Assembly (NCBI GenBank): GCA_965645245.1
Contig: OZ287078.1
Coordinates: 2,046,001 to 2,110,000 of the forward strand
Reading direction: 5' to 3'
Source of the DNA: Massalongia carnosa
Lineage: Eukaryota
DNA length: 64,000 bases
Below are positions 1 through 64,000 of the stretch, piece after piece. Made by a program: the position numbers and the translations under genes. The notes beneath the pieces were generated by a model, which was not told the origin of the DNA, did not search any database, and worked only from the letters and a program-made list of their open reading frames with translations. Position 1 is the first letter of the stretch, and each line of letters begins with the position of its first letter.

Positions 1-1072
1 TTCCTGGGCATCGAGCTGGATACACACCTCATGCAGGCACGACTACCGGCCGAAAAGCTTCAGAAAGCTAAGGATCTTGTCCAAACAACATTGAATAAAT
101 CCACGATAACCAGAAACAAGCTAGACACTCTTGCTGGGATTTGTGGGCTTTGCAGCCAAAATGGTGGTGCCGGAAATAACTTTTCTCCGACGCCTTTTCA
201 ACTGCAAAATCGGGCCCGCGCGCCCATTAATGAGTAACAATTCTCACATAAAAGCTGATCTTTTATGGTGGCATCATTTCCTTCCATTATGGAACGGCAT
301 ACACATTATTAGCCCTTCGAGACCCCTGCTCCGTCTCTGGACGGATGCCAGTGGGGACTTCGTGATCGGGGCATAAATATTTCAAGGTGGTCAGACCACA
401 CACATTGCCCGCTGAGCAAGTGGTTTCTGAACGTTATACCACCCCTTTGCAGCCAAAGTAGTGGTGCCCGAGAGAACCTTTCTTCGGCGCCTTTTCAACT
501 GCAAAATCGGGCCCGCGCGCCCATTTATTCATGTCGATTCCCACATAAAAGCTGATCTTTTATGGTGGCATCACTTCCTTCCATTATGGAACGGCATACG
601 CATCATCAGCCCTTCGAGGCCCCTGCTCCGTCTCTGGACGGATGCCAGCGGGGACTTCGGAATCAGGGCATACATACTCTTAGGTGGTCAGACCACACAC
701 ACACTGCCCGCTGAGCAAGTAATATCTGAACGATACACGACTAGGCTCAGAGCCAAACATATCAATGAGAAGGAGATGACAGCGATCCTGCACGCCATAC
801 GGCGGTGGCTCCCCCTGTGCAAGAGAGCCCATCTTCTTCTCTATTGCGACAGCTTCGCTGTAATGTCCGGGGTCAAAAAGACCTCCATGCGAGGAGGGGC
901 CATGCACCCTCTTCGGAATATCGCCATGATGGCGGCTGTAAATGACATTGAAATCGAGCCACACTGGCTGTCGACCAAAGAAAACTTCTTAGCAGATTGG
1001 TTGTCCCCAGTATTATTTGGGAAAATCGCTGACAATTACCCCAAACTGCAGGGCATTTCATCAGACAAATAA
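1..1072 (+). pseudogene. RT/RNase H of Ngaro-like element 1, frameshifted, with internal duplication
   Basis: ORFs 31..237, 131..376 and 461..1072 carry DLLWW..FLP.WNG and TDASG motifs. Confidence 0.85.
148..742 (+). repeat. Diverged tandem duplication of ~297 bp within RT/RNase H
   Basis: The block ctttgcagccaaa...tctgaacg occurs at ~148-444 and again at ~445-742, and the translations are near identical. Confidence 0.9.
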
Positions 1073-1103
1073 CGGCGACACACGCCCGCGACCCTCCAGA
1101 AAC

Positions 1104-2097
1104 ATGGTACAATGAGGTCCCGCTGGATCGTCGGGCAGCCAGATATCTATGGTGGGGCATAGCAATTAGGACTCGAGGACTATACGATGCAGCCCGAAAA
1201 AGCTACACGACCCACTGTCAGCTGGCGACGAATTTTTCCCCTTTCCAGCAACAATTCGAAGTCTTTCGGCGTGGATAGCCGCTCTAGGCCAACGGGGACT
1301 CCGTCCCAAAACTATCAAAAACTATCTAGCTGGGGTGCGATCAAGTCAATTGGACATGGGCCTAGGGGACCTGGAGGTTTCCATCAGCCAGTCCTAGACA
1401 GGATAATAGCAGGAATAAAACGGATGCACGGTGAACCCGAAAAACGAGAAAGACTACCAATCACACGCGACGTTCTGATAAAATTGCTACGAAAATTAGA
1501 CACTATTAACGAGGTCCAAGCAACACTCCATGCGGCATATAGCATCGCATTCGCTGCCTTCTTAAGAGCGGGAGAATTTACTTAAAAACAAGGAGACATG
1601 CAAGACCCCAGCTTCGATTCATGAATTTAACCAGGAAATCCGTGGACCTACGAGAAGATCGAATGATTCTCCCCTTACCATCATCGAAAACGGACCCTTT
1701 TCGAAGAGGTAGAAAAATTTACATCGCAGCAACAAACGACGAAGCATGCTCGGTCGCCTCCACCCGGAACTTGTTTACCCGGTTCCCGAAATCAGCATCG
1801 TCCCCGCTGCTCCAGGTTCAAAACAAGGCCTTCACCCGGGATTATTTGATGCAGGCTCTGCAAAACAGTCTCCGGGCGATTGGAGTTCGAGGTAATTACT
1901 CGGGTCATTCGTTTCGACGTGGGGAAGCAACAACGGCCAAGGACTTGGGCTTGCTGGAAGAAGACATTTAAACCTTGGGCCGATGGAAATCGGACTCGTA
2001 TCAGCTATACATCCAAACACACCCGGACCAGCTAATAGCGACTTCCCTTCGTTTTCAACGACCCCCCCCCGTCACGTTTCGAACAGCACCACCATAG
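1104..2097 (+). pseudogene. Tyrosine recombinase of Ngaro-like element 1 (stops and frameshifts)
   Basis: AARYLWWG, RERLPIT, FLRAGEFT, SKTDP, GHSFRRG, GRWKSD.Y. Confidence 0.85.
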
Positions 2098-2383: not shown

Positions 2384-3274
2384 TGTTAAATAAACAGTTG
2401 ACGGCATAATGTTGAAATTACTACGGAGGTGACTGCTTATAGCAGTCATGGCAGCCTGCAGGGCTGAGCTAGAACTAATGGGGCTAAGCGAGTATTCCAA
2501 CACTCCCCTTCGAGTGTGGCTCCCCTTTCGCCTCCAAAATTGAACTATCCAGCTTTTATCACTCCCCTTGCGAAGTGATTCATCCAGCTGTGTCCGATTC
2601 GCTCCCCTTGCGGAACGAATCTAGCTCCCTCTGACTCCATTTTCCCTAAGCACGTAGTTCTTTCTTATGTCTTTTGTTGTCCTGCTTTGTAGCCTCATTA
2701 AACCCATAACCATCTCTCGAAACGTAGCTTTTGTGAGTGTATGGGTGGATGGGAAGAGTACTATGGACGTGTTTTATTGATGGCCTGAGCAGGGCTTTTC
2801 TCGATGTCTCTGTGAGACATTTTCCCGCAGACCATTGACGTTGGTGGCCTGATCGCAGGGCTTTTATCTCCCCTTGCTGATCTGAGCAGTAATGCAAGAT
2901 GTGAAGTCTTCGAGGCACCGCCCGTTGTAGATGTCCTCCTCAGCACGTTTCGTACGTACACCACTTTCGATGACGTTTCCGCTTCGTTTCCGCTTCGTTT
3001 CTCATCCCTTTCGATGTCGTTTCCGCTTCGTTTTCGCGCTTTCCACGTCTGAACTTTCACCTCATCATCTTCTTGATACGACATGATAGTACGTAGTCTA
3101 TGCATGAAGGATGCCGTCGGAGGGGCGCAAAGCACAAACCCCGGGACTCATAACCTGTTAAATAAACAGTTGACGGCATAATGTTGAAATTACTACGGAG
3201 GTGACTGCTTATAGCAGTCATGGCAGCCTGCAGGGCTGAGCTAGAACTAATGGGGCTAAGCGAGTATTCCAACA
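2384..3274 (-). mobile_element. Miniature non-autonomous LTR retrotransposon (TRIM-like), copy 1
   Basis: Identical 119-bp TG..CA LTRs at 2384-2502 and 3156-3274, with a GCGGG TSD on both sides. The minus strand has PBS GGTTATGAGTCC and PPT AAGGGGAG. Confidence 0.95.
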
Positions 3275-4608
3275 GCGGGTACTGATAATCAGGAATCCAA
3301 CGCCCTTAACATTCTCTGCAATATCAGATGGCAAGGTGGCTATATCAATGACCAAATTGAACGATTTAAAGTTGAAAATAGGCATCGTGATATTTGCTAC
3401 AGTTGTATTGACCGGTACAGCACTTCATGATGTTATAACTCTTCGAGAAGTCCTCGAGGTACGAGGTTCGACCAAGGTTGCAGATACTAGATTCGCCAGT
3501 CCTCCGCGCGCAATACAAGGCCCGATCGTTAATTTGGATACATATCATACCATTGCCATGAATAACCCGGCCCGTCATCATTTATTTTTCAAGTCAAGCA
3601 GTACCGCTCCATCCACGTAATATGGTACCTATCTTACGGAGCTGTAAGCCAGAGGCTCGACGAATTGAGATGGTAAAGAGAAGCAAAGTATAGCAGAAAT
3701 CATCCAGAAGTATGCTCTGCGAGCTACAGGCTGTCCTGAACTTGATGCAGTAGGATTGCCTCTTTCCAATTAATGTGGCCTGGTTATCGTATTCAATAGG
3801 ATTGTCGTCATGATTTTGATTCGAGACGGATAAAGAGGACAATTCATCAAGCTCGCTGCTTCGGTTGTCTAGTCGAAAGTAAGCGATTTGAAGTGATCTT
3901 ACACAATCAGATGAAACAGTATACCATTCATTTGATTATGGAGTACATGTGCTGTCTTTGCAGAAGGATATAAACTTGTGTTTATACTTATCTAAGACAT
4001 CTCAATCTGTAAGTCGTTGACTAATAAACATCCGCAATGAACTTCGTTAGATTATCGTTTATACGTCAAAGACGTCGTGCGGATAGGACAAAAAACCCCC
4101 CTAAGCATCTGATCACGAGACCTTACCCCACCACAATCCAAACTCGGAATATTCCGTGTTTAAACTTAAAATAGACAAAGTTATTAATAATCGTCGTCGT
4201 TGAATGCACAACGATTTATCTTATAATAAACTCAGCCTGGTAAACTCGAACCAACATATTTGTGATGTGTGAACTGTTGCTTTCATCTTCATTTTCAACA
4301 ATAACGCATGATGCTATTTCAGTTCGAGAAGTTGGTGTTCATGAGTTGAACATCTGTTTCTCATTCTATTATTGTTGCTCTGGACCATGGCGCAGAAGCT
4401 TGAGTCCTTGCAACTGAATCATCTTTTCATGATAGAGCGCAGCATTAAAAGGATCGTAGTATCCAGCATTCAATCCAAATCATCGTCTTACATCGTCTCA
4501 TCTGTTGCAAATAAAGCTTATCCTACAATCATAATACCTTAGAGTTAATACCTTCTCTGTTTTATAAAAACTTCACATTGAAATCATTGCAAGCGCGACA
4601 GGAGAATC

Positions 4609-5559
4609 ATGGCCATTGAATCTGGGATCAGCAACTACGTGCGCACAGACGGCAGGATTGCTTGGGAAGACGGCATGAAGATTGGAGATGGATATAATCT
4701 GGCCGGGCACAACACCCTCCAGTCACCTTTTCGAGAATTCAAGCATCCGGTGACGCTAGGCAAAAACATCTGCAAGATCCATCTTACGTACGAGAAAATG
4801 CGAAACCAAGAAGACATCATGAGGATTCTCGAATCGAGTGATAGCGCATCTGTGATACTCTCAATGGAGCTTTTGCAGACGGCGAAATGTAATACAACCA
4901 GCATGGTGACTATCATTCGATGTACGGCTACACTGCCCACTGACAACTTCGATACTTCCTTGCAGTTTACGGAGGAAGCCAAATCAACAGCAAGCAGCGC
5001 TGAGGACTTTGTTCGAAGATTCGGCGAGTACTGTATCTCCGGCTGGACGTGTCAATCGACATTCTTCGCGATATGTGTCCACACAGCCAAAAGCTCGGAT
5101 ATTCTCGATGAATTTCAAGCAAAGCTAAATGTTGGCTTCAATGGCAGCGCAACAGGGGCGGGACTTGCTTCGGAATTCATGAGGAAGGTTACAGCAACGT
5201 CCAAGCATGTCAGCGTTAAGACCGATATCGACTATGTTGGGTACAATGCCAAAAGGCTTAACAAAGACTTTGAGAAGATCCGCTTAGACAAGGCATGGAA
5301 ATCTTTCCTAAAAAACTGGTCTCCATTGCCAACGGTGGCTATCTTGAAACATTACTCTGCTCTCAGAGTGGAGGGGCTTGATAGCATCCCCGGACCAGAC
5401 CGCACTCACGACATCTCTACCGGGTTGGTCGCGTACATGAGAAGAGCTCTAGCATTGCAGATTTCCGCTCAGTCGAGTGTGATGAGATGTGCGAGGAAAC
5501 AGGTACCAAACATCGAGAACGTCATCAATCAACTTGTTATAAACGGGCGGTTGGGGTAG
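4609..5559 (+). CDS. 316-aa ORF, possible MACPF/perforin-like protein, probably truncated at the C-terminus
   Basis: Clean ATG-initiated ORF. IGDGYN near the N-terminus and EDFVRRFGEYCISG resemble the MACPF-like F..YG.(H/Y)..G segment. The last codons run into an LTR-like sequence starting at 5535. Confidence 0.45.
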   Translation: MAIESGISNYVRTDGRIAWEDGMKIGDGYNLAGHNTLQSPFREFKHPVTLGKNICKIHLTYEKMRNQEDIMRILESSDSASVILSMELLQTAKCNTTSMVTIIRCTATLPTDNFDTSLQFTEEAKSTASSAEDFVRRFGEYCISGWTCQSTFFAICVHTAKSSDILDEFQAKLNVGFNGSATGAGLASEFMRKVTATSKHVSVKTDIDYVGYNAKRLNKDFEKIRLDKAWKSFLKNWSPLPTVAILKHYSALRVEGLDSIPGPDRTHDISTGLVAYMRRALALQISAQSSVMRCARKQVPNIENVINQLVINGRLG

Positions 5560-54376: not shown

Positions 54377-55302
54377 GAGGGGTGAGATGCTGAATACTAG
54401 TGATACCAGAGATGCTGGCGCTGGTCAGCGAGGACTGCAATCGGTGAAGGATTCGAGTATTTTCAGCTCGAAGCACTTCCCTTCGCCTTGGCTCCTCTGA
54501 GGATAGAGAGATAAAGCATCGCCAGCTCCATTATCCTTGCCATGACGATAATCGATGCGGAAATTGTAACGAGAGAGTTCTTGCGCCCAGCGAACCTGGC
54601 GGGGGCTTAAACTCTTCGTATCAATAAATCACCGCAGGTTGTTGTGGTCTGTAAGCACGAGAACTTCATGCTTACAACCTTCGAGATAATGCCTACAATT
54701 CTTAAAGGCTTCAACGAAGGCCAGTAGTTCCCCATCGTGAGTTTCGTAACGAGTTTCTGCAGGAATCATTTTTCGAGAAAAATACGCTACTGGGTGCCAT
54801 TGGCCGGTTTCGATATCCAGCTGGGTAAGAACGACACCTATTGAAGAATAGTAAAACTCACGTGTAGGTATAATAGCATGATTGTCATTGAAGGTATGGA
54901 TTATATGTGAGCTATCTACTTCCTTATATAGCAGTCACATTGGAGACCTTTCGGCGACCCTTTTCATAAGCAGTCAAGCGGTCCACTGAATCTCGGTCCC
55001 CGGAGGTCATCTGGGTCCCCGTGGTAGAGTCGCCGAAGATAAGCACTAGATAAATGCCCATGATGGTAGTTCTTACCATCTGACACTCCCATTCAGTCAT
55101 CTACCTGTAGAAATCGCCCGTTGTGCGGCGTAACACGAAACGCGTAAGGTGTGCTTGGCTGATTTCCCCCCGCTTCGGCGTCGGCACGCACCGCTGTACC
55201 GTAAAACGTGCACCATAACACGAGAATCCCCGTCGCTGGCAACGCGACCTCTAATCGCCTCACGAGGGAGCTGGGAAGCGGCTAGGGCATAGGGAGAGGA
55301 TC

Positions 55303-58300
55303 ATGAGCGCCCGTTTTGTCTATCTGCCGGAATGGCGGGTGCTGGTGTGCGAAGCGTGCGGCTTTGGCCTCCGTCCCGGTCACGGCGTTTGGGTTCGGCA
55401 CCTGAGGCAAGCACCGCATTGCTTGAAGGGCCCCGAGCTCCGGGCCCAGGTCGAGCTGTTCGAGAGCTACGACCTCTGCGCGCCGGAGCCGGAGCTCGCG
55501 CAGCTGCCGGCCCACGCGATCCCCGGATTACGGCTCCTCGACGGTTTCCAGTGCTTGACCTGCGCGGCTGGTCTGACCCCAAGCCTCCAAGCTATCGAAC
55601 GGCACGTGTCAAAAGCCCACCAGCTCAAGCCTGCATGGCATCAGAAGAACCCCCTCTGGCGGTCGTGCAAACTCCAGACTTTCTTTGCCGAGAATCGCTT
55701 AGTTCGGTATTTTGTGGTAGAGGATGAGGGAAGAGCAGAGGCGCCAGGGAGCTCCGGATACAGGGGCGCGGATAGCTTGGGTTCAGGGGACGAAGACTTC
55801 TTTAAGCTGCTCGACCAGGACGCCGCTATTGCAAAGGAGGATGCTAAGGCAGAGGCCAACATCGTTCATGGCTTCGATGACCACCGATCCGCTGTGGTGC
55901 CGTGGCTGAGACGGACGGGCATCGAGGAGCACACGCGGAGCTTAAAGAAGGACGAGATGCACGACTCTTTTGCAGTACCGAAGGCTGCCGAGAGCGAGCC
56001 CGAGCTGTTCCTGATGCTAGAGGTGATGGACGAGATCTTTCTAGAGACGCACAGCTAGTGCTTCGATGGTCCCGACTGCATGCTGACCTGGCCACGGCAG
56101 CTGGCGTTGAGCCGCTTCCATCCTGCCGCTGTCCCAGGGCAGAAGACGCGCGCGTTCGACCCGAAGAAGGAGCCTAATACGCTCAAGACCTACTTCGGCT
56201 ACTGGAAGCAGTTCTTGACCTACAGCTACCGGGTGGCCTACCGGGGCGACCACTTCACCGCGGCCGACAGCGACCAGCGGACCCCCGAGAGCCATATCCA
56301 GCTCACGGGTGCTCAGGAGAATGCGTGGGAAGTGGCTTTCCAAAGTGCCGTCGAGCAAGACGGGCCTGCGCTGAGAAAGGCCATGTCGGTGATCTCAATG
56401 GCGCTGATCTGCCACGAATTTGGAGGCAATCGGTACAGATCCTCACTGCTCAGCTTCTGCGCCATGCTCAGTGTCAAGCCACACACCAAGACTTGGAAGG
56501 AGCCGGGCAATTACAATAGCTGCTTGTCTGGCGTAATCTGGATTGTGCAGCTAATCATCTTCCACGCCAGCGCCTGTCTGGAGAAGGCGGAGCTAGGTGA
56601 TACACTCGAGCGTATTGGAATTTGCCGAGAATTTCCAGATTAGGCAATCATATGCTATATACGAAAAGCTTCAGATTTCGGCACGAGTTCGGCAACTACG
56701 AGGAGGCAAAGGTATGCAGCAAAAATGCTACATTTCGGAGGCAATTCAGCTGTTCATGATCACTGAGTGTCTCTGTGTCTCCGGTCAGCAATAAGGTGTA
56801 TTGTGCCCAGCTGAAAAGCTTCAAAGGAAGCAGGTTCATGCATTTGATATAGGCCGAGATGGAGGCCCTCAAGCAGTATAAAGAGACGATGATTCCTCAT
56901 GTAATTTAGTTATTCAGTCGTTCAGAAGTTAGTGCAGCAGATAGCTAAATTTGGAGTATCTTCACTGGAAATACGGAGTACCTGCATCACTTTTTCCAAG
57001 CACTTCTCTTTGCCTATCCTTGATAGCCCTAGACCCTCTTCTCCTGCATCCCGCTGCCGTATGCCTGGTTGATTTTTTGTTCAACAGGTTATGAGCCCGT
57101 ATAGCACTCTATTCAAATCCAGGAGTATTTTATCACTAGATCTTTTATCTTAGGGGATATAGCCTGTGTGCTTGTTTGAACTCCTAGCTATCCATTTCGG
57201 CACTCGAATAGGACGACTCCTTTACCACCAAAATGTCTGCCTCAGAAGACAGCCAAGATACCGGAGGTGCCATGAGGGCATCCACCACCCCCGAGGCTAG
57301 CAAGGACTCCTCATCAAAGGACAAGGGCCTAGCGGCTATGACAGCCATTGATGGGGGATATAAAAGGGGTGCCGGTGTAAAAGATGAAGTAAAACTGCCA
57401 AAACTTACTAGCGACAACTACAGGCTGTGGTCCCACCTTTTGAAGGTGCACTTAATTGCCAAAGGGCTCTGGAAAGTAGTCAGTGGAGAGATACTCGAAC
57501 CACCAGGAAGCATGCCTTTAGATAGAGACTCGTGGATCTTTGATGATGCCACAGCAATTACCATCCTCATGGGAGCCATGGACGAAAGGCAGCAGAAGCA
57601 TGTGCAACTGCAGCAATCTGCCGAAGGGGTATAGGATGCCCAAAAGGAAATTCACGGCAAAGACTCCAGGACACGCTTGGTCCCCATGCTCCGCCGATTT
57701 CATACGTATAAGGCCAAGGCAGAGGAAGGAGTAGATGAGACTGCAGCAGAGCTAGAAGATATGAGGGATATCATCGCAAACATAAACCCAGAGGTGAAGC
57801 CATCCGATATCATGATGGCCCTAGTCCTAATGGATTCGGTGGATCACGAGCGGTATAATGCGGTGAAATTGCAATTAAACGACTTGGAAAACCTCACGTT
57901 TCGGAAGGTGATTGAAAAATATAAAGAAATCGAGCAGATGGCGAGTGATAACGCGGGGAACCCCTATGAAATCGCTTATAAGGTCTCCGCCAAGCCCTAT
58001 AAGTTTAAGGGGAAATGTTACCACTGCAAGAAACCTGGTCACGTGAAAACCAAGTGTTTTGAATGGCTTGCCAGTGACGAAGGCAAGGCTTACAATGAAG
58101 ATACAGCCAGCACGGCCCAATCAAAGGGCAAGAAAGTCAAGGACGGAGGTAAGGGAGAGGAAAAGTTAAGTGATGGCAGACGTGGAATGGGCCGAGGAGT
58201 TCACCTTGCACGTAAAGCATCCGGCACAAGGGACAGCGACAGTAAGGATAGCGACGACGAGTCAGTGTACGGTCGCATTGCCATTGACCACGTAGACCAG

Positions 58301-61300
58301 AGCGACCATGAGGATTTCACCGACTACGTCAACAATGGGGCGAGCTATCGCACTTCCTAGAAGTGCTCCTCCCCTAAGAGTTTTGCTAGAGTGGCAAAAC
58401 TCACTTCCAAAGTAATACCCCCGAATGAGTAGATGATTGACTCAGGGGCCATTCGCCATATGACGGCCAGTCGGAAGCTATTCACAAACTTTACACTGCA
58501 GGTAAGTTGGGTGAGGATAGCTAATATGGTAAAGATTAAATCACCTGGTTAAGGTGATGTGGCTGTGGAGCTGGAGGATAAGAAGTTCAAACTTACAGAA
58601 GTGTTATACGTACCTGAGCTGGATGCGAATTTGTTGTCAATTTCGGCATTACAAGCTAGAGGAATGATTGTGAGGTTTGGATTGAGTTTCGTCGAAATTT
58701 TGAGGAGAGGTAGCTGCCTCGCCACCGGGTTTTTGGTGGGAAAAACGTACCTGCTCCGATCCGCAGGAAGCGGAGTGGCCCTGATAGCCACTGAGGATCC
58801 CGATGAAGAAATCCCTATTACTTCTGATCCAAATATCAGCGAAAGATCGTCCGGAAATCAGAATTTGCCAAGAATGCCAGAAAATGCAAAAAGACAATAA
58901 AAAAGCAATTAGTACTTGGTCCCAATTAGAAAGAGACCGATACCTACTATGGCATGGCCGCATGGGGCACGTGGGAGCATACAGACTCACTGACCTCCAT
59001 GAAGCCACTAATGGAGTGGGAGCCAAGTTACATGACCATGAGAAGGAATGCAAATGCATCACATGTACTCAGACGAAAATGACTTGAATAATCAACCGAA
59101 ACCCACCAGAACGGGCTACCCGCCGTCTGGAACGAGTCTGTTCAGACTTTTGGGGTCCATATCGGGTGCCCAATAACCAGGGGACCAAGTATTTTGTGTC
59201 CTTTACCGACGAAGCCACCGGCTACTCGGATGTTTACCTCGGAGCCAGGAGCGAGCTAGAAAAGCTCTTTCGGATGTTCAAAAATCGTGCCGAGATCGAG
59301 ACAGGGGAGCGAATCAGGATCCTGCGATGTGATAACGCTTTGCAGTATGAAAAACTGGGTAGAACGATATTGCCGGAAGGAATAGTGGTGGGTTTACCAC
59401 GGCCTAAACCCCTGAGCAGAATGGGGTTGCAGAAAGACTCAATAGAACGCTGATGCAGATGGTATCAGCGATGCAGATGTGGTCTGGGTTGCCTAGGTCA
59501 TTTTGGGGGGACGCAGTACTGACTGCCAATTATCTGAAGAATCGCCTTCCGTTGAAGCGGTTTGATAAGAAGACCCCATATGAGATATGGCACCAGAAGA
59601 AGCCAGAGGTAGGCCATATGAGGACCTATAGATGCCTCGTACACGTGCACGTTCCTAGCAAAACTCGAGCGAAGATGGATAAGGTATCCCATCAGGGAAT
59701 TCTCGTTGGATTCCGGTCATCTATACAGTATAAGGTGCATAATCCTGATACGAAAACAGTGGGAGTACATACCTCAGTGAAGTTTTTCGAGGATTGGCCA
59801 AGAGGCCCTTTACTGAATACACCAGCGGAACAGGGTGAGTGGGAGTTAGATGTTGCAGATTCAGACTACGAACCTGATGAGGAACAAGGAGTTCCTACGT
59901 ACAGACTTACAAACCCTGAGAATGCCTTAGAATTTCAGGGAACATCAAACCTAGAAAATGACGACGCAATATTTCTAGGTGATAATGTTCCCGGAGAAAG
60001 TATTGAGGGTACAGAGAATCCCTCACTGAATGAAGGCGATATTCCCGGAAATCGCGAAACTCCGGGAAATCAAGAAGAAGGAAACGAGACCTCGGAAACT
60101 GAAATCCGAGCACCAGAATTCGAAGGTCTGCCGACTACTGGACGAAATTCGCCAGAGCCAGCACAGAATTCAAAAAGGGGGCAGAAAGCCACGCTATCAC
60201 CGAAAAATCAACAGCTTGTTTTAGCAGCACCTTCCCGGTCAAGACGCACGAAAAAGCCGTATGACTCCAAGGCATTTGATAAGTCAAAAGCACCAATGGC
60301 TATCGTTTATATAGCTCGATTGCCTGAACCGGCTACCTATAAGGAAGCCATGACTGGACCAAATCGCCGTGAATGGAGGGGGGCAACAGAAGAAGAGCTG
60401 GAAGCGCTGCGGTGGAAACGCACGTTTATTATCGTGCCGAGGCCGAAAAACCGTGAGCTAATAACTTCGAAATGGGTATTCAAAATCAAATACACATCCG
60501 CCGCAGTTATTGAGCGGTTCAAGGCCAGACTTTGTGCTAGAGGTTTCACTCAGAAATATGGCATTGATTACGAAGAAATATTTGCACCCACCTTGAGGTT
60601 CGAATCTCTGAGAATGTTAATGGCAATTACTGCGTTACTGAACCTGGAAGCACATCAAATGGACGTTTCAAATGCCTATTTAGAAGGGGAGTTGGAAGAA
60701 GAAATCTACATGGAAATACCAGAGGGAATGGATGTTCCGAACGAAAAGAATAAGGCCCTTCTACTGCAAAAAGGCCTTTATGGTCTCAAGTAATCCGGCC
60801 GAATCTGGAGCAGAAAGTTCAGAAGGTATCTGAGATCCATTGGATTCGAACCAATCTCAGCCGGCAATTGTGTGTTCATAAACCTCCAAGCCGGCGTCAT
60901 TATCTCAGTATACGTCGATGATCTTCTCATTTTTACCGCCAAAATATCCCTCATCAATGCAGTCAAGGCACAGCTAAAACAGGAGTCTAAGATGAAGGAT
61001 TTGGGAGAGGTAGACCACATCTTGGGAATGCGAGTGCGGAGAAACCGAAAATCTAGAAATCTAACACTAGATCAGTCAGTATACATCAACAACTTCATTT
61101 CGAAATATGGGATGGAAAATGCACAACCAGTTTCAACTCGATTGATGGATATGCAGCATTGACTGCCGCCACCCCCACGGAACCCAGGACCGACCAGCTG
61201 GAGTATCAGAAAAAGCTATGATCCCACCAACGAGATAGCAGCTGATATTTTGACAAAGCCTTTGACAAAGGCGGCTTTTGAACGCGGACGTGCTCTACTA

Positions 61301-63426
61301 GGTATGAAGGGTGCCTAGAGAGTTAGCGATAGTTTATCGCAACCACATCGGCCCACGAGGGCCAATGGCCTACCTGAGCATCGTGTTCCGATTGGCAAAA
61401 CACGCAGGATTTCTTTTAATTCGTTTTCGGGCATGCGAGGGTATGAAGGCATTCAGATACTCGGAGTAGGAGTATTGGAATTTGCCGAGATACCTGAATA
61501 TTTGCGACCGAGGTTCTTTTGCCTCCTGCTTACTAATTTCCAGATTAGGCAATCATATGCTATATGCGAAAAGCTTCAGATTTCGGCACGACTTCGGCAA
61601 CTACGAGGAGGCAAATGTATACAGCAAAAATGCTACATTTCGGAGGCAATTCAGCTGTTCATGATCACTGAGTGTCTCGGTGTCTCCGGTCAGCAATAAG
61701 GTGTATTTTGCCCAGCTGAAAAGCTTCAAAGGAAGCAGGGTCATGCATTTGATATAGGCCGAGATGGAGGCCCTCAAGCAGTATAAAGAGACGATGATTC
61801 CTCATGTAATTTAGTTATTCAGTCGTTCAGAAGTTAGTGCAGCAGATACCTAAATTTGGAGTATCTTCACTGGAAATACGGAGTACCTGCATCACGTTTG
61901 CCAAGCACTTCTCTTTGCCTATCCTTGATAGCCCTAGACTCTCTTCTCCTGCATCCCGCTGCCATATGCCTGGTTGATTTTTTGTTCAACAGAGCTCATT
62001 GAGCAGTATTGCGGGCAGTTCTTGAAGCAGGACACCGAGACTCCTGTGGGCGAGATCCTCGGCTGGCGCTTGCTGCTGTTTACTGTCTCGAAGGAGGTTG
62101 TTGGGCCGCACCAAGCACAGTGGGATGTGGACGAGAAGGTCCTGACCTACCGAGACGTTGATTTGCATATGGATCACGTGCCGCGGCTCTTACTCTCCGA
62201 GTTCCAGCAAGCCCAGCACCTACTCTACGACGAGCTGATGTTCGGGACCCAGAACCTTCCGCGGATGCGTGCTTGGGCATTAAAGGACAACTTAGACGCC
62301 GATGCCTTTGGCTGGTTCTTTGGCCAGCACTGGGTGAACTTTGAGCTGGTAAAGCCACTGGCGAGGTCTTTGCTAACCGTTATCCAAGACTCGAAGCCGT
62401 TGCGGGACTCGTTCCTGGATGCCAACGCGGATGGCGCTAAGGTCTGGCGGGAGAAAGCGATTGAACGGTCTGAGGCCGTGGCTAACGAGTTCCTGAAAAG
62501 GCTCTTAGTCTTGATCCACATGGGCTCTGGCCAGCCTCTGCGCGAGAGTGAACTGTTCTCCGTCACCTGGCGTAACACCCAGCGGCGGCAAAGCGTCTAC
62601 CTCAAGCACGGGCTAGTCATGCTGCACACCACATACCACAAAGGTCAGCAGCAGACGGACAAGTTTAAGGATAATATCCGGTTCTTGCCTGCACCTATAG
62701 GAGACCTCTTGCTGGACTACTTGGTAGTTGTAGTCCCGCTCCACCAGGTCTTCCTCCGCCGGTCTGCCCCGCATTCCCTTATCTCTCCGTACTTGTGGTG
62801 GCAAGACGGCAAGGTCTGGGCTGACAACCGGCTCACGCGGTGCATGGAGCAGGCATGTAGTCGGGCCAGCGTCCCCCGGCTACACATTGCCAACTGGCGG
62901 CAGATGACGGTCAATATCGTCGAAACTAAGTTTGCAGCTGACGTTGGGTGCTTTGAGGTTGACGACGGGGCTAACGACGAGGATGCCGAAGAGATCGAGG
63001 CGAACATTCGGATTATGACCAAGCAGCGGAACCATAGTAAGCGGACTGTCAACCGGGCATATGCAAACCAACACAATGCTAACTTTGGGAACGTGTGGGA
63101 TGGCCTTATCCGCCGGAATCTGCGTGCTTCAACTCTGTGGAAGGACTTGTGGGGGCTTGACCAGCTGCTGGGACCTGCTGGGAAGAGGAAGCGGGATGGT
63201 GAAGAATTGGTGGTCCGCAAATGCTCAAGAAGATCGCCATGGGGGTCTACCGGCCACGGAAGAAGTGGTCAGCTGCGGCTCTGCTGAACAGTGTAAGAAA
63301 GCTGTACCTAGAAAACACGCTGAAGTGGAAGTCAGCAGCGCAGGAGCGGGCTATGACTACTATCATGTCATGGACTGAGCAAGTGGTAGTTATCATGGCT
63401 ACTGGCGAAGGGAAGAGCCTGCTGTT
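55303..63426 (+). pseudogene. DUF3505 zinc-finger, putative tyrosine-recombinase domain and RecQ-like helicase (telomere-linked-helicase-like), split by Copia and truncated by Gypsy
   Basis: Two Cys/His fingers, WRSCKLQTFF and PWLRRTG; then GQPLRESEL, YHK, WRQ, QRNHS, RAYA; then QERAM...MATGEGKSLLF. Removing the Copia rejoins TLE(R/L)IEQYC. Confidence 0.75.
56613..61991 (+). mobile_element. Ty1/Copia retrotransposon, decayed, with most of RNase H deleted
   Basis: LTRs at 56613-57086 and 61473-61991 (the latter 45 bp longer), TSD GAGCG/GAGCT, PBS GGTTATGAGCCC. Motifs CYHCKKPGH, IDSGA, LWHGRMGH, KARLCARGFTQ, YVDD, ADILTK. Confidence 0.95.
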
Positions 63427-64000
63427 TATAAGAGGGACAGTAGATACTAGTCCTTATGGGTTATAATGCTCAGTGTGACTGTGTGAGGGATAAAACGAGT
63501 TCAATTTCAATAGCCTAGTTCTACACCAAAATCTTCAGACGAAGTCTAAAAGCTTTACTCGGGCGGAGTTCTATATAACCCCTGAAAAGTCGGTTCCTCG
63601 GCACATTACCTAATCGATGCTAGTCTGATGTCAGGTGACCTCAGGACCCTGACACTACCCCTCCTCTGAGACGGCGGCTCCGGACGTCGATGGTTGACTG
63701 TTATTCATGAATAGGACATCCTTTGGGGCGTTGGGTTTTCCTTTATTGTCTGTATGAAATTTTCTGATTTCTTCTTTGGCGCGAATGAAATCAGTCTATG
63801 GCTGCCAAGGTGGGTTTGCGTTCCAGTCATCCCATGAGCCGATATAGGTTGCTTTATACTGAGTGCCGTATTTCTTAGTTTCACGGCAGTCGACGATTTC
63901 GAGGACTTCATATTCTTCATGAGGACTGGATTCGGCGTCTTCTTGAATCAGTATCGGGGGACCCGGTTCAATAAGTTGACCGGGGAATGGGTTCGTAGGA
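63427..64000 (-). mobile_element. 3' end of another Gypsy chromovirus: LTR 63427-63654, PPT, chromodomain
   Basis: LTR TATAAG...CCTGACA, PPT AGAGGAGGGG, EYEVLEIVD..QYKATYIG.W. It inserts right after the helicase motif I. Confidence 0.82.

Follow-up and report, generated by a model that had tools for sequence, protein, structure and literature searches.

A stretch of 64,000 nucleotides from Massalongia carnosa (contig OZ287078.1 of assembly GCA_965645245.1, positions 2,046,001 to 2,110,000 of the forward strand), which will be referred to as the window, carries a broken coding unit that belongs to the known fungal family of telomere-linked RecQ helicases (TLH). The list of open reading frames (ORFs) and inspection of the sequence showed a plus-strand frame opening at ATG 55303, which is interrupted by a Copia retrotransposon. 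In silico excision of this element restored the frame, the join reading ..GDTLE-R-IEQYCG.. as in the intact relative P0001, and thereby confirmed the single coding unit proposed in a preliminary description of the locus. Downstream of Copia the frame resumes at 61992/61997 and runs to ~63205. Alignment to the related locus L017 revealed a 1-bp deletion near 63205/6 that shifts the frame, and the shifted frame holds the RecQ motif I TGEGKS (63401-63418), as had been described. The preliminary description was right about the frameshift and the Copia insertion but overlooked an in-frame TAG at a position where relatives (e.g., P0001) code for Trp, and likewise the end of homology. Similarity to relatives stops at 63429, which is 11 bp past the motif I codons, so that the remaining helicase gene is absent from the window. 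As a further sign of decay, the window codes for Gln at one position that is an invariant Arg in all other sampled sequences. Because of the in-frame TAG and the end of homology at 63429, the window copy is dead; it is a relic (55101-63429) of a fungal TLH unit, broken by the TAG, by the Copia element, and by the frameshift. The locus has no function of its own and is useful only as a pointer to a reading at the level of the family, in which the central domain of the TLH proteins is predicted to be a tyrosine recombinase.

The zinc fingers expected at the N-terminus were recovered as a C2H2 pair (Pfam OrsD PF12013, E 1.4e-12, residues 4-107), and in structure comparisons zinc-finger chains matched residues 76-141 of a 952-residue model of a relative. 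Searching with the 431-residue middle piece of the window unit yielded 178 longer proteins, with full-length members reaching up to E 3.5e-260. The best of the 178 have 1,430-1,500 residues and carry OrsD, DEAD, and Helicase_C; several are annotated as RecQ helicase and one as 'telomere-associated recQ-like helicase'. A search without word index returned 1,513 cluster representatives at E ≤0.001; among ten remote members whose clusters were consulted, the single one carrying a taxon name belongs to a lichen fungus. In the full-length proteins the match to the middle piece sits at approximately residues 450-850. The helicase part of the relatives matches RecQ5/BLM (E 3e-45, family profile against PDB sequences), and the remnant in the window comprises the motif 0/I region only (DEAD, E 0.0028, under the Pfam cut-off). 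Intact members consist of a single intronless ORF of ~1,440-1,500 residues with four parts, which are in order an OrsD double zinc finger, a recombinase-like module, a RecQ helicase, and a Cys-rich tail. To characterize the surroundings of such genes, 28 metagenome loci encoding relatives were examined. Two of them, L018 and L030, end in (TTAGGG)n at ~2 kb and ~2.9 kb past the stop codon, with the genes reading toward the end. Between the stop codon and the terminal (TTAGGG)4 of L018 (3997-6033), the coding strand is almost free of C and rich in A, T, and G. It is interspersed with GGGTTA and words resembling TTAGGG, and a (GTGA)n run directly precedes the telomere; judged by its composition, this 2-kb tract looks like an old, decayed telomere-repeat tract.

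The TLH domain was reportedly defined by Rehmeyer in 2009. TLH genes have been recognised since the late 1990s as puzzling multi-copy genes at the chromosome ends of fungi, and in addition in a choanoflagellate. In published descriptions of the proteins, a pair of C2H2 fingers is followed by a 'TLH domain' of ~250 residues, which immediately precedes the RecQ helicase (bioRxiv 10.1101/2024.02.27.582403; 10.1101/2022.03.07.483234). The genes are multi-copy at chromosome ends, read toward the nearby telomere, and are often broken by transposons, stops, and frameshifts (10.1101/2024.02.27.582403; 10.1101/2022.03.07.483234; PMC1635262). The resemblance in layout that had been pointed out in the preliminary description is in fact membership, the window unit being of the same protein family and layout as Magnaporthe TLH1, fission-yeast Tlh1/2, Ustilago UTASa, Botrytis BcTLH, and Fusarium TLH. 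It differs from them in that the copy is dead and the window is without telomere repeat. In these accounts the function of TLH is given as unknown and the TLH domain as a family-specific motif of unknown function (10.1101/2024.02.27.582403; PMC1635262), whereas our models predict a whole tyrosine recombinase.

The fold of the domain was predicted with AlphaFold2 (AF2) in two models. Model 1 was built from the 403-residue piece of the window itself, aligned with 54 relatives, and reached a predicted local distance difference test score (pLDDT) of 81.1 and a predicted template modelling score (pTM) of 0.79; model 2 comprised the first 952 residues of the relative P0002 with 73 relatives (pLDDT 85.5). 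Comparing model 1 to 48,161 representative chains by VIA-align gave XerA as the best match (Z 11.5, root mean square deviation (rmsd) 3.3, 168 residues aligned over model residues 40-393), and Z values of 9.7 for XerH, 9.2 for Cre, 9.1 for XerD, 8.5 for IntI, and 8.1 for a bacterial topoisomerase IB. All 28 rows with Z of at least 5.4 were tyrosine recombinases, type IB topoisomerases, Ndc10 or MrpR/SroF, and unrelated helical proteins started at Z ~4.8. XerA was also found with model 2 (Z 11.8, rmsd 3.1, 168 residues aligned), for which rows 1-21 all belonged to the same superfamily. With this longer model, XerH aligned over both domains (269 residues, model 236-758 to chain 14-339), as did IntI (256 residues), Cre (245), Tn1549 Int (258), lambda Int (241), and Flp (250), these full-length enzymes aligning from approximately model residue 222-247 on. 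In a Foldseek search of model 1 against PDB, the first 15 listed rows were all tyrosine recombinases (XerH, XerA, Cre, staphylococcal integrase, and XerD), with XerH on top (E 0.01, probability 0.99). Over the two models, XerH, XerA, and Cre led the Foldseek rankings. Based on these models, residues ~230-820 are predicted to form a whole tyrosine recombinase consisting of a helical core-binding and a catalytic domain. Structure prediction and search, the check proposed in the preliminary description, therefore agreed with the fold suspected there, for the catalytic domain in model 1 and for the core-binding plus catalytic domains in the longer one. Language-model neighbours were the Phage_integrase, NDC10_II, and Integrase_2 clusters with scores of ~0.8, which is a lead only. 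Residues 1-138 of the P0002 model, outside this module, showed a weak match to the origin recognition complex (ORC)-interaction domain of yeast Sir1 (Z 5.7, 100 residues aligned), which may mean nothing.

The candidate catalytic residues had been placed at R ~62541, K ~62640, IANWRQ ~62897, QRNHS ~63030, and Y ~63060, and each of them was found at its position (R of GQPLRESEL 62541, K of YHK 62640, R of NWRQ 62898, H of NHS 63033, and Y of AYA 63060). To examine their conservation, 148 TLH domains with 25-93% identity to the window piece were aligned, and for comparison a set of 15 recombinases was used (13 of E. coli K-12, Cre, and lambda Int). Aligning the TLH-domain profile to the recombinase profile with hhalign gave a score of 30.0 (E 0.0034), compared to 14.2 for the reversed control and a maximum of 23.8 for 30 block shuffles (0/30 above). 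The resulting register pairs R184 with XerD R148, K217 with K172, R303 with R247, H348 with H270, and Y357 with Y279. A full-length TLH profile against XerD alone reached a probability of 0.4%; the domain-only profile against the 15 recombinases was needed. The five residues were kept in 147 (R), 145 (K), 147 (R), 143 (H), and 146 (Y) of the 148 sequences, down to ~25% identity, as anticipated for homologues in the preliminary description. With conservation in 143-147 of 148 aligned sequences, the R-K-R-H-Y pattern is hardly due to chance. In a 74-sequence alignment reaching down to 22% identity, ten columns were invariant in the first 952, namely R, R, K, R, and Y of the recombinase-like domain and five helicase motif residues. 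Fusarium-type members, compared by way of a region search with the remote member P0240 that gave 9 proteins, retain R, K, WRH, and H-x8-Y. The features of the locus are compiled in Table 1, in which the extent of the core-binding-like domain is approximate, as it was transferred by colinearity with P0001/P0002.

Table 1. Features of the TLH relic and its left flank (positions in the window unless residues are named).
Feature	Position	Strand	Description and basis
Gypsy-type RNase H fragment, left flank, outside the TLH unit	54632..54934	-	Pfam RT_RNaseH, E 9e-22
Conserved non-coding 5' block of the TLH unit	55101..55302	+	Opens with terminal motif CTACCTGTAG (55101-55110); GCGGCG and repeated CACCATAA-like motifs
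First coding piece	55303..56055	+	OrsD double C2H2 finger region, linker, start of helical core-binding-like domain
OrsD-type zinc-finger region	residues 4-107, ~55312-55623	+	Pfam PF12013, E 1.4e-12
Nonsense codon TAG	56056..56058	+	Trp in relatives; runs X1, X2, X4, X5 have G at 56057
Second coding piece	56059..56612	+	Most of helical N-terminal core-binding-like domain; Pfam: no match
Copia LTR retrotransposon within the gene	56613..61991	+	Pair of long terminal repeats (LTRs); Pfam Retrotran_gag_2, rve, RVT_2
Tyrosine-recombinase-like catalytic domain ('TLH domain'), predicted	62109..63170	+	AF2 model, profile register with XerD, conservation
Candidate active-site codons	R 62541-43, K 62640-42, R 62898-900, H 63033-35, Y 63060-62	+	
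RecQ helicase start, other frame	63203..63429	+	L017 alignment; weak Pfam DEAD, E 0.0028

Nucleotide similarity of the window unit to other copies sets in 202 bp ahead of the ATG, at 55101, and does not reach further upstream. The left boundary had been sought at the Gypsy RNase H at ~54840, which is off by ~260 bp. The coding strand of 10 loci and of the window carries a motif CTACC[CT][CG]TAG at a distance of 190-550 bp upstream of the ATG, which amounts to 11 of the 15 gene 5' ends with at least 200 bp of flank. The exceptions are L024 with a variant recognised by eye, L023 with a degenerate form, and L036 and L042 without the motif. In total 16 matches were counted on both strands of ~280 kb, compared to ~2 expected by chance according to our own arithmetic. 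The 11 motif-bearing sequences are unrelated upstream of the motif, whereas GCGGCG, a G-run with GGCACRG, and at least two CACCATAA-like repeats are common to them downstream. Compared to the C-strand telomere repeat the motif shows 2 mismatches in 12, and from this likeness it may be a decayed telomere repeat, the orientation being wrong for a same-sense interstitial repeat. On the 3' side, similarity between copies ends 1-4 bp past the stop codon. Two diverged TLH units lie head to tail in L017 (2-4381 and 4600-9110), 220 bp apart. In L019 the motif of the downstream unit marks the exact point at which the upstream unit breaks off, 110 bp short of its stop codon. The sharp 5' end, the 3' end, and the arrays are compatible with a discrete unit; transposition is not proved by them.

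Several further details of these loci were noted. The 220-bp spacer of L017 contains about seven copies of a 14-bp tandem repeat. In L033 the first 52 bp of the unit (19-71), motif included, recur with 98% identity at 5495-5546, 966 bp past the stop codon, and from the sequence this recurrence could stem from a terminal direct repeat or from the remnant of a following unit. L042 contains two TLH 5' parts in opposite orientation, at 596-1666 (minus strand) and 2698-5346 (plus strand), and a terminal motif on the minus strand at 2068.

Taken together, we consider that the window holds a TLH relic, that its central domain has the fold of a tyrosine recombinase, and that intact copies of the family are catalytically competent, and we assign a probability of about 0.65 to these three statements jointly. 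The relic and the fold alone are very likely, whereas the ability of intact copies to cut and rejoin DNA, judged from conserved residues and predicted structure, is probable. The recombinase module of intact copies would cut and rejoin DNA via the conserved Tyr, forming a 3'-phosphotyrosine, and unwinding or branch migration of the substrate would fall to the RecQ motor fused to it. A TLH cassette might then use this activity at its 5' terminal site and on telomere-repeat DNA to copy or recombine itself at the ends of chromosomes. Such self-propagation at chromosome ends, by a selfish, Crypton-like, end-seeking element, appears the most likely use of the activity, a proposal that we put forward tentatively. 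Slightly more speculative is the suggestion that TLH units represent an unrecognised superfamily of eukaryotic tyrosine-recombinase elements with a single ORF for zinc fingers, recombinase, and RecQ, each unit recognising telomere-repeat DNA as well as its own 5' site (CTACCYCTAG with CACCATAA-type repeats) and copying or recombining onto chromosome ends. In Fusarium, TLH units are bordered on both sides by telomere repeats, single or arrayed (10.1101/2024.02.27.582403), an arrangement to be expected if integration occurred into telomere-repeat DNA. Of the mobile-element enzyme postulated in the preliminary description, the recombinase fold is supported by the predictions, and excision and integration remain hypothetical. 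A sharp conserved 5' boundary and head-to-tail arrays were found; no trace of excision or integration (target duplication, empty site or circle) was seen.

A number of observations weigh against this interpretation. The first histidine of the HxxR motif, which the preliminary description had listed for tyrosine recombinases, is absent, XerD H244 aligning with Ala300 of the window piece. Close by, His298 is conserved in no more than 93 of the 148 sequences; the remaining R, K, R, H, and Y stand. Type IB topoisomerases have a catalytic set of R-K-R-H-Y without the first histidine of the recombinases, and because this histidine is missing the TLH pentad resembles topoisomerase IB. None of the sequence methods was significant by itself. 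The hhalign probability was just 9.6%. No Foldseek match reached E ≤0.001, the best being 0.01 for model 1 and 0.028 for model 2. No Pfam recombinase family was found in any of 30 full-length members at E up to 1, nor in the window pieces, and a phmmer search of PDB sequences with the window piece yielded noise only (E ≥0.89). The full-length family profile against PDB sequences likewise had helicases only among the 60 matches listed. The segment with H and Y is of low confidence in both models (residues 324-366 in model 1 and ~751-800 in model 2), so that the placement of these two residues rests on the sequence register and not on the three-dimensional model. The fold is shared by non-enzymatic proteins, Ndc10, MrpR, and QRICH1 being among the matches of model 1. 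Concerning mobility, the copies compared are 67-90% identical, and selection on promoter and ORF could give sharp edges. Neither a target duplication nor an empty site nor a circle junction was seen in the 28 metagenome loci and four sequencing runs, which as contigs of diverged copies are poorly suited for this. In these runs (X1, X2, X4, and X5; public, from close relatives of the window organism, compared to the window as contigs only), the depth of the TLH part is at the same level as the other flank, corresponding to approximately a single copy. The 64 kb window contains no (TTAGGG)3, even with one mismatch; the window copy may be a displaced or internal relic, or the telomere may lie beyond the window. 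Finally, the published view is that TLH genes spread by subtelomeric recombination (10.1101/2024.02.27.582403; PMC1635262).

The strongest alternative is a host enzyme for telomere maintenance, whose catalytic module would resolve or initiate recombination at eroded telomeres together with RecQ, the copies being spread passively by subtelomeric recombination or break-induced replication. The telomere-adjoining relatives L018 and L030 are in agreement with such a role, as is the pentad without the first histidine, as in type IB topoisomerases. In addition, two accounts describe genes at chromosome ends that are induced in fission yeast telomere crisis and are thought to be kept by selection (10.1101/2024.02.27.582403; PMC1635262). 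However, pseudogenes are common, the window copy included, and the discrete conserved 5' end with unrelated flanks and the head-to-tail arrays of diverged units are not what a host gene would suggest. Outside mobile elements and plasmids, catalytically intact tyrosine recombinases are not otherwise known to occur in eukaryotes, which we count against a host role. TLH presence is moreover patchy, and the genes multi-copy, between Botrytis strains of one species (10.1101/2022.03.07.483234). On balance we regard a host role as somewhat less likely than a self-propagating recombinase, and as its most serious competitor.

Considerably less likely is an inactive, DNA-binding recombinase fold comparable to Ndc10, MrpR/SroF or the Crypton-derived QRICH1, which would guide RecQ to subtelomeric DNA. 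Such inactive relatives are indeed among the structural matches of model 1, the first histidine is missing, and the Tyr-bearing segment is modelled with low confidence. The inactive relatives known to us have, however, lost the catalytic residues, whereas R, K, R, H, and Y of the TLH domain are near-invariant in 148 sequences down to ~25% identity while most of the domain varies. A chance succession of the five residues in a helical domain without relation to recombinases, with the fold match reflecting a common arrangement, would account for the best Foldseek E of 0.01 and for Z values of 7-8, which are common for models without clear match, but is highly improbable in view of 28/28 and 21/21 top rows from one superfamily with unrelated rows from Z ~4.8 only, full-length recombinases aligning over two domains, an independent profile alignment that gave the same register and beat its controls, and, as a lead, the language-model neighbours.

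Among known systems, recombinases of the Xer/Cre/integrase type are closest to the predicted module, sharing with it the two-domain fold and the succession R, K, R, H, Y, which is in register with that of XerD. As in XerD, the Lys of the TLH domain directly follows the second strand of a beta hairpin. In contrast to the Xer/Cre type, the TLH module has no Pfam match, its HxxR histidine is replaced, zinc fingers and a RecQ helicase are joined to it in one protein, and it contains large helical insertions and an acidic loop before the His-Tyr segment. Type IB topoisomerases have the same superfamily fold (Z 6.5-8.4) and the R-K-R-H-Y set, but Xer-type enzymes score higher and the TLH module possesses a core-binding domain of the recombinase type. 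Cryptons are single-ORF fungal elements of a few kb with a tyrosine recombinase and no terminal inverted repeats. Compared by description only, the TLH unit is similar, with ~4.5 kb, one intronless ORF, and no inverted repeats noticed at its ends; it differs in carrying a helicase, and we know of no helicase in Cryptons. Helitrons, which contain an HUH nuclease and a Pif1-type helicase, resemble the TLH proteins in that a tyrosine-based DNA-cutting domain and a helicase are combined in one large protein. They were rejected as a classification, as the TLH helicase is of the RecQ type and no Rep/HUH family was found by Pfam in 30 members; the Botrytis 'Helitron-like' element is reported to be a separate neighbour of BcTLH (10.1101/2022.03.07.483234). 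Starship captains are likewise fungal tyrosine recombinases tied to mobile DNA, but none of the 30 members matched DUF3435 and a captain was therefore rejected. The TLH unit is without the cargo of Starships, and captains, as far as we know, are not fused to a helicase.

The TLH family is known, and it is the recombinase reading of its central domain that appears to be new. A full-text literature search found no paper tying TLH to tyrosine recombinases, the few co-occurrences being unrelated; since most subscription journals are outside its coverage, this is provisional. If true, our reading would change the understanding of the TLH genes at fungal chromosome ends. A recombinase with intact catalytic residues fused to RecQ implies a concrete and testable activity, the cutting and rejoining of DNA at or near telomeres, and would extend the small set of eukaryotic tyrosine-recombinase systems (Flp, Crypton, DIRS/Ngaro, and the Starship captains) by a new enzyme architecture. 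It could also explain the spread of subtelomeric cassettes between chromosome ends and the survival of telomere crisis. An end-seeking element, if it is one, would account for the head-to-tail arrays, the telomere-flanked Fusarium units, and the patchy distribution among strains. Fungal subtelomeric helicase families would then be selfish end-seeking elements, possibly tolerated for helping ends to survive telomere loss.

The four sequencing runs provided further information on the lesions and the flanks of the window copy. All four read G at 56057, resulting in TGG (Trp), so that the TAG is private to this assembly or strain. The Copia element has LTRs with ~98% identity and is bordered by a target duplication, GAGCG (56608-12) and GAGCT (61992-96), the downstream copy having one change. 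A relative's contig from run X5 crosses 56611 directly into the downstream TLH sequence without Copia. Compared to the 5' LTR, the 3' LTR has a 45-bp insertion near its start. On the left side, contigs of runs X1 and X4 end at 55100/55101, adjoining a high-depth repeat, and the contig depth across 54787-55137 is 8-50x that of the TLH part (runs X1, X2, and X4). This depth profile indicates that the left neighbour is a high-copy repeat adjoining the TLH unit at 55100, the TLH copy itself being approximately single-copy there. As to the boundaries or empty sites called for in the preliminary description, the 5' boundary was located and no empty site was found. Beyond 63430 there was no Pfam match at E ≤0.01, a Gypsy chromodomain in this region being an unconfirmed guess by eye, and the 64 kb window contains no second TLH copy. 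The two halves of the relic are not equally similar to L017, the part before Copia (55303-56611) being 83% and the part after it (61992-63429) 95% identical; to judge from these values, the two parts may stem from different TLH lineages, making the relic a mosaic, or they may have decayed to different extents.

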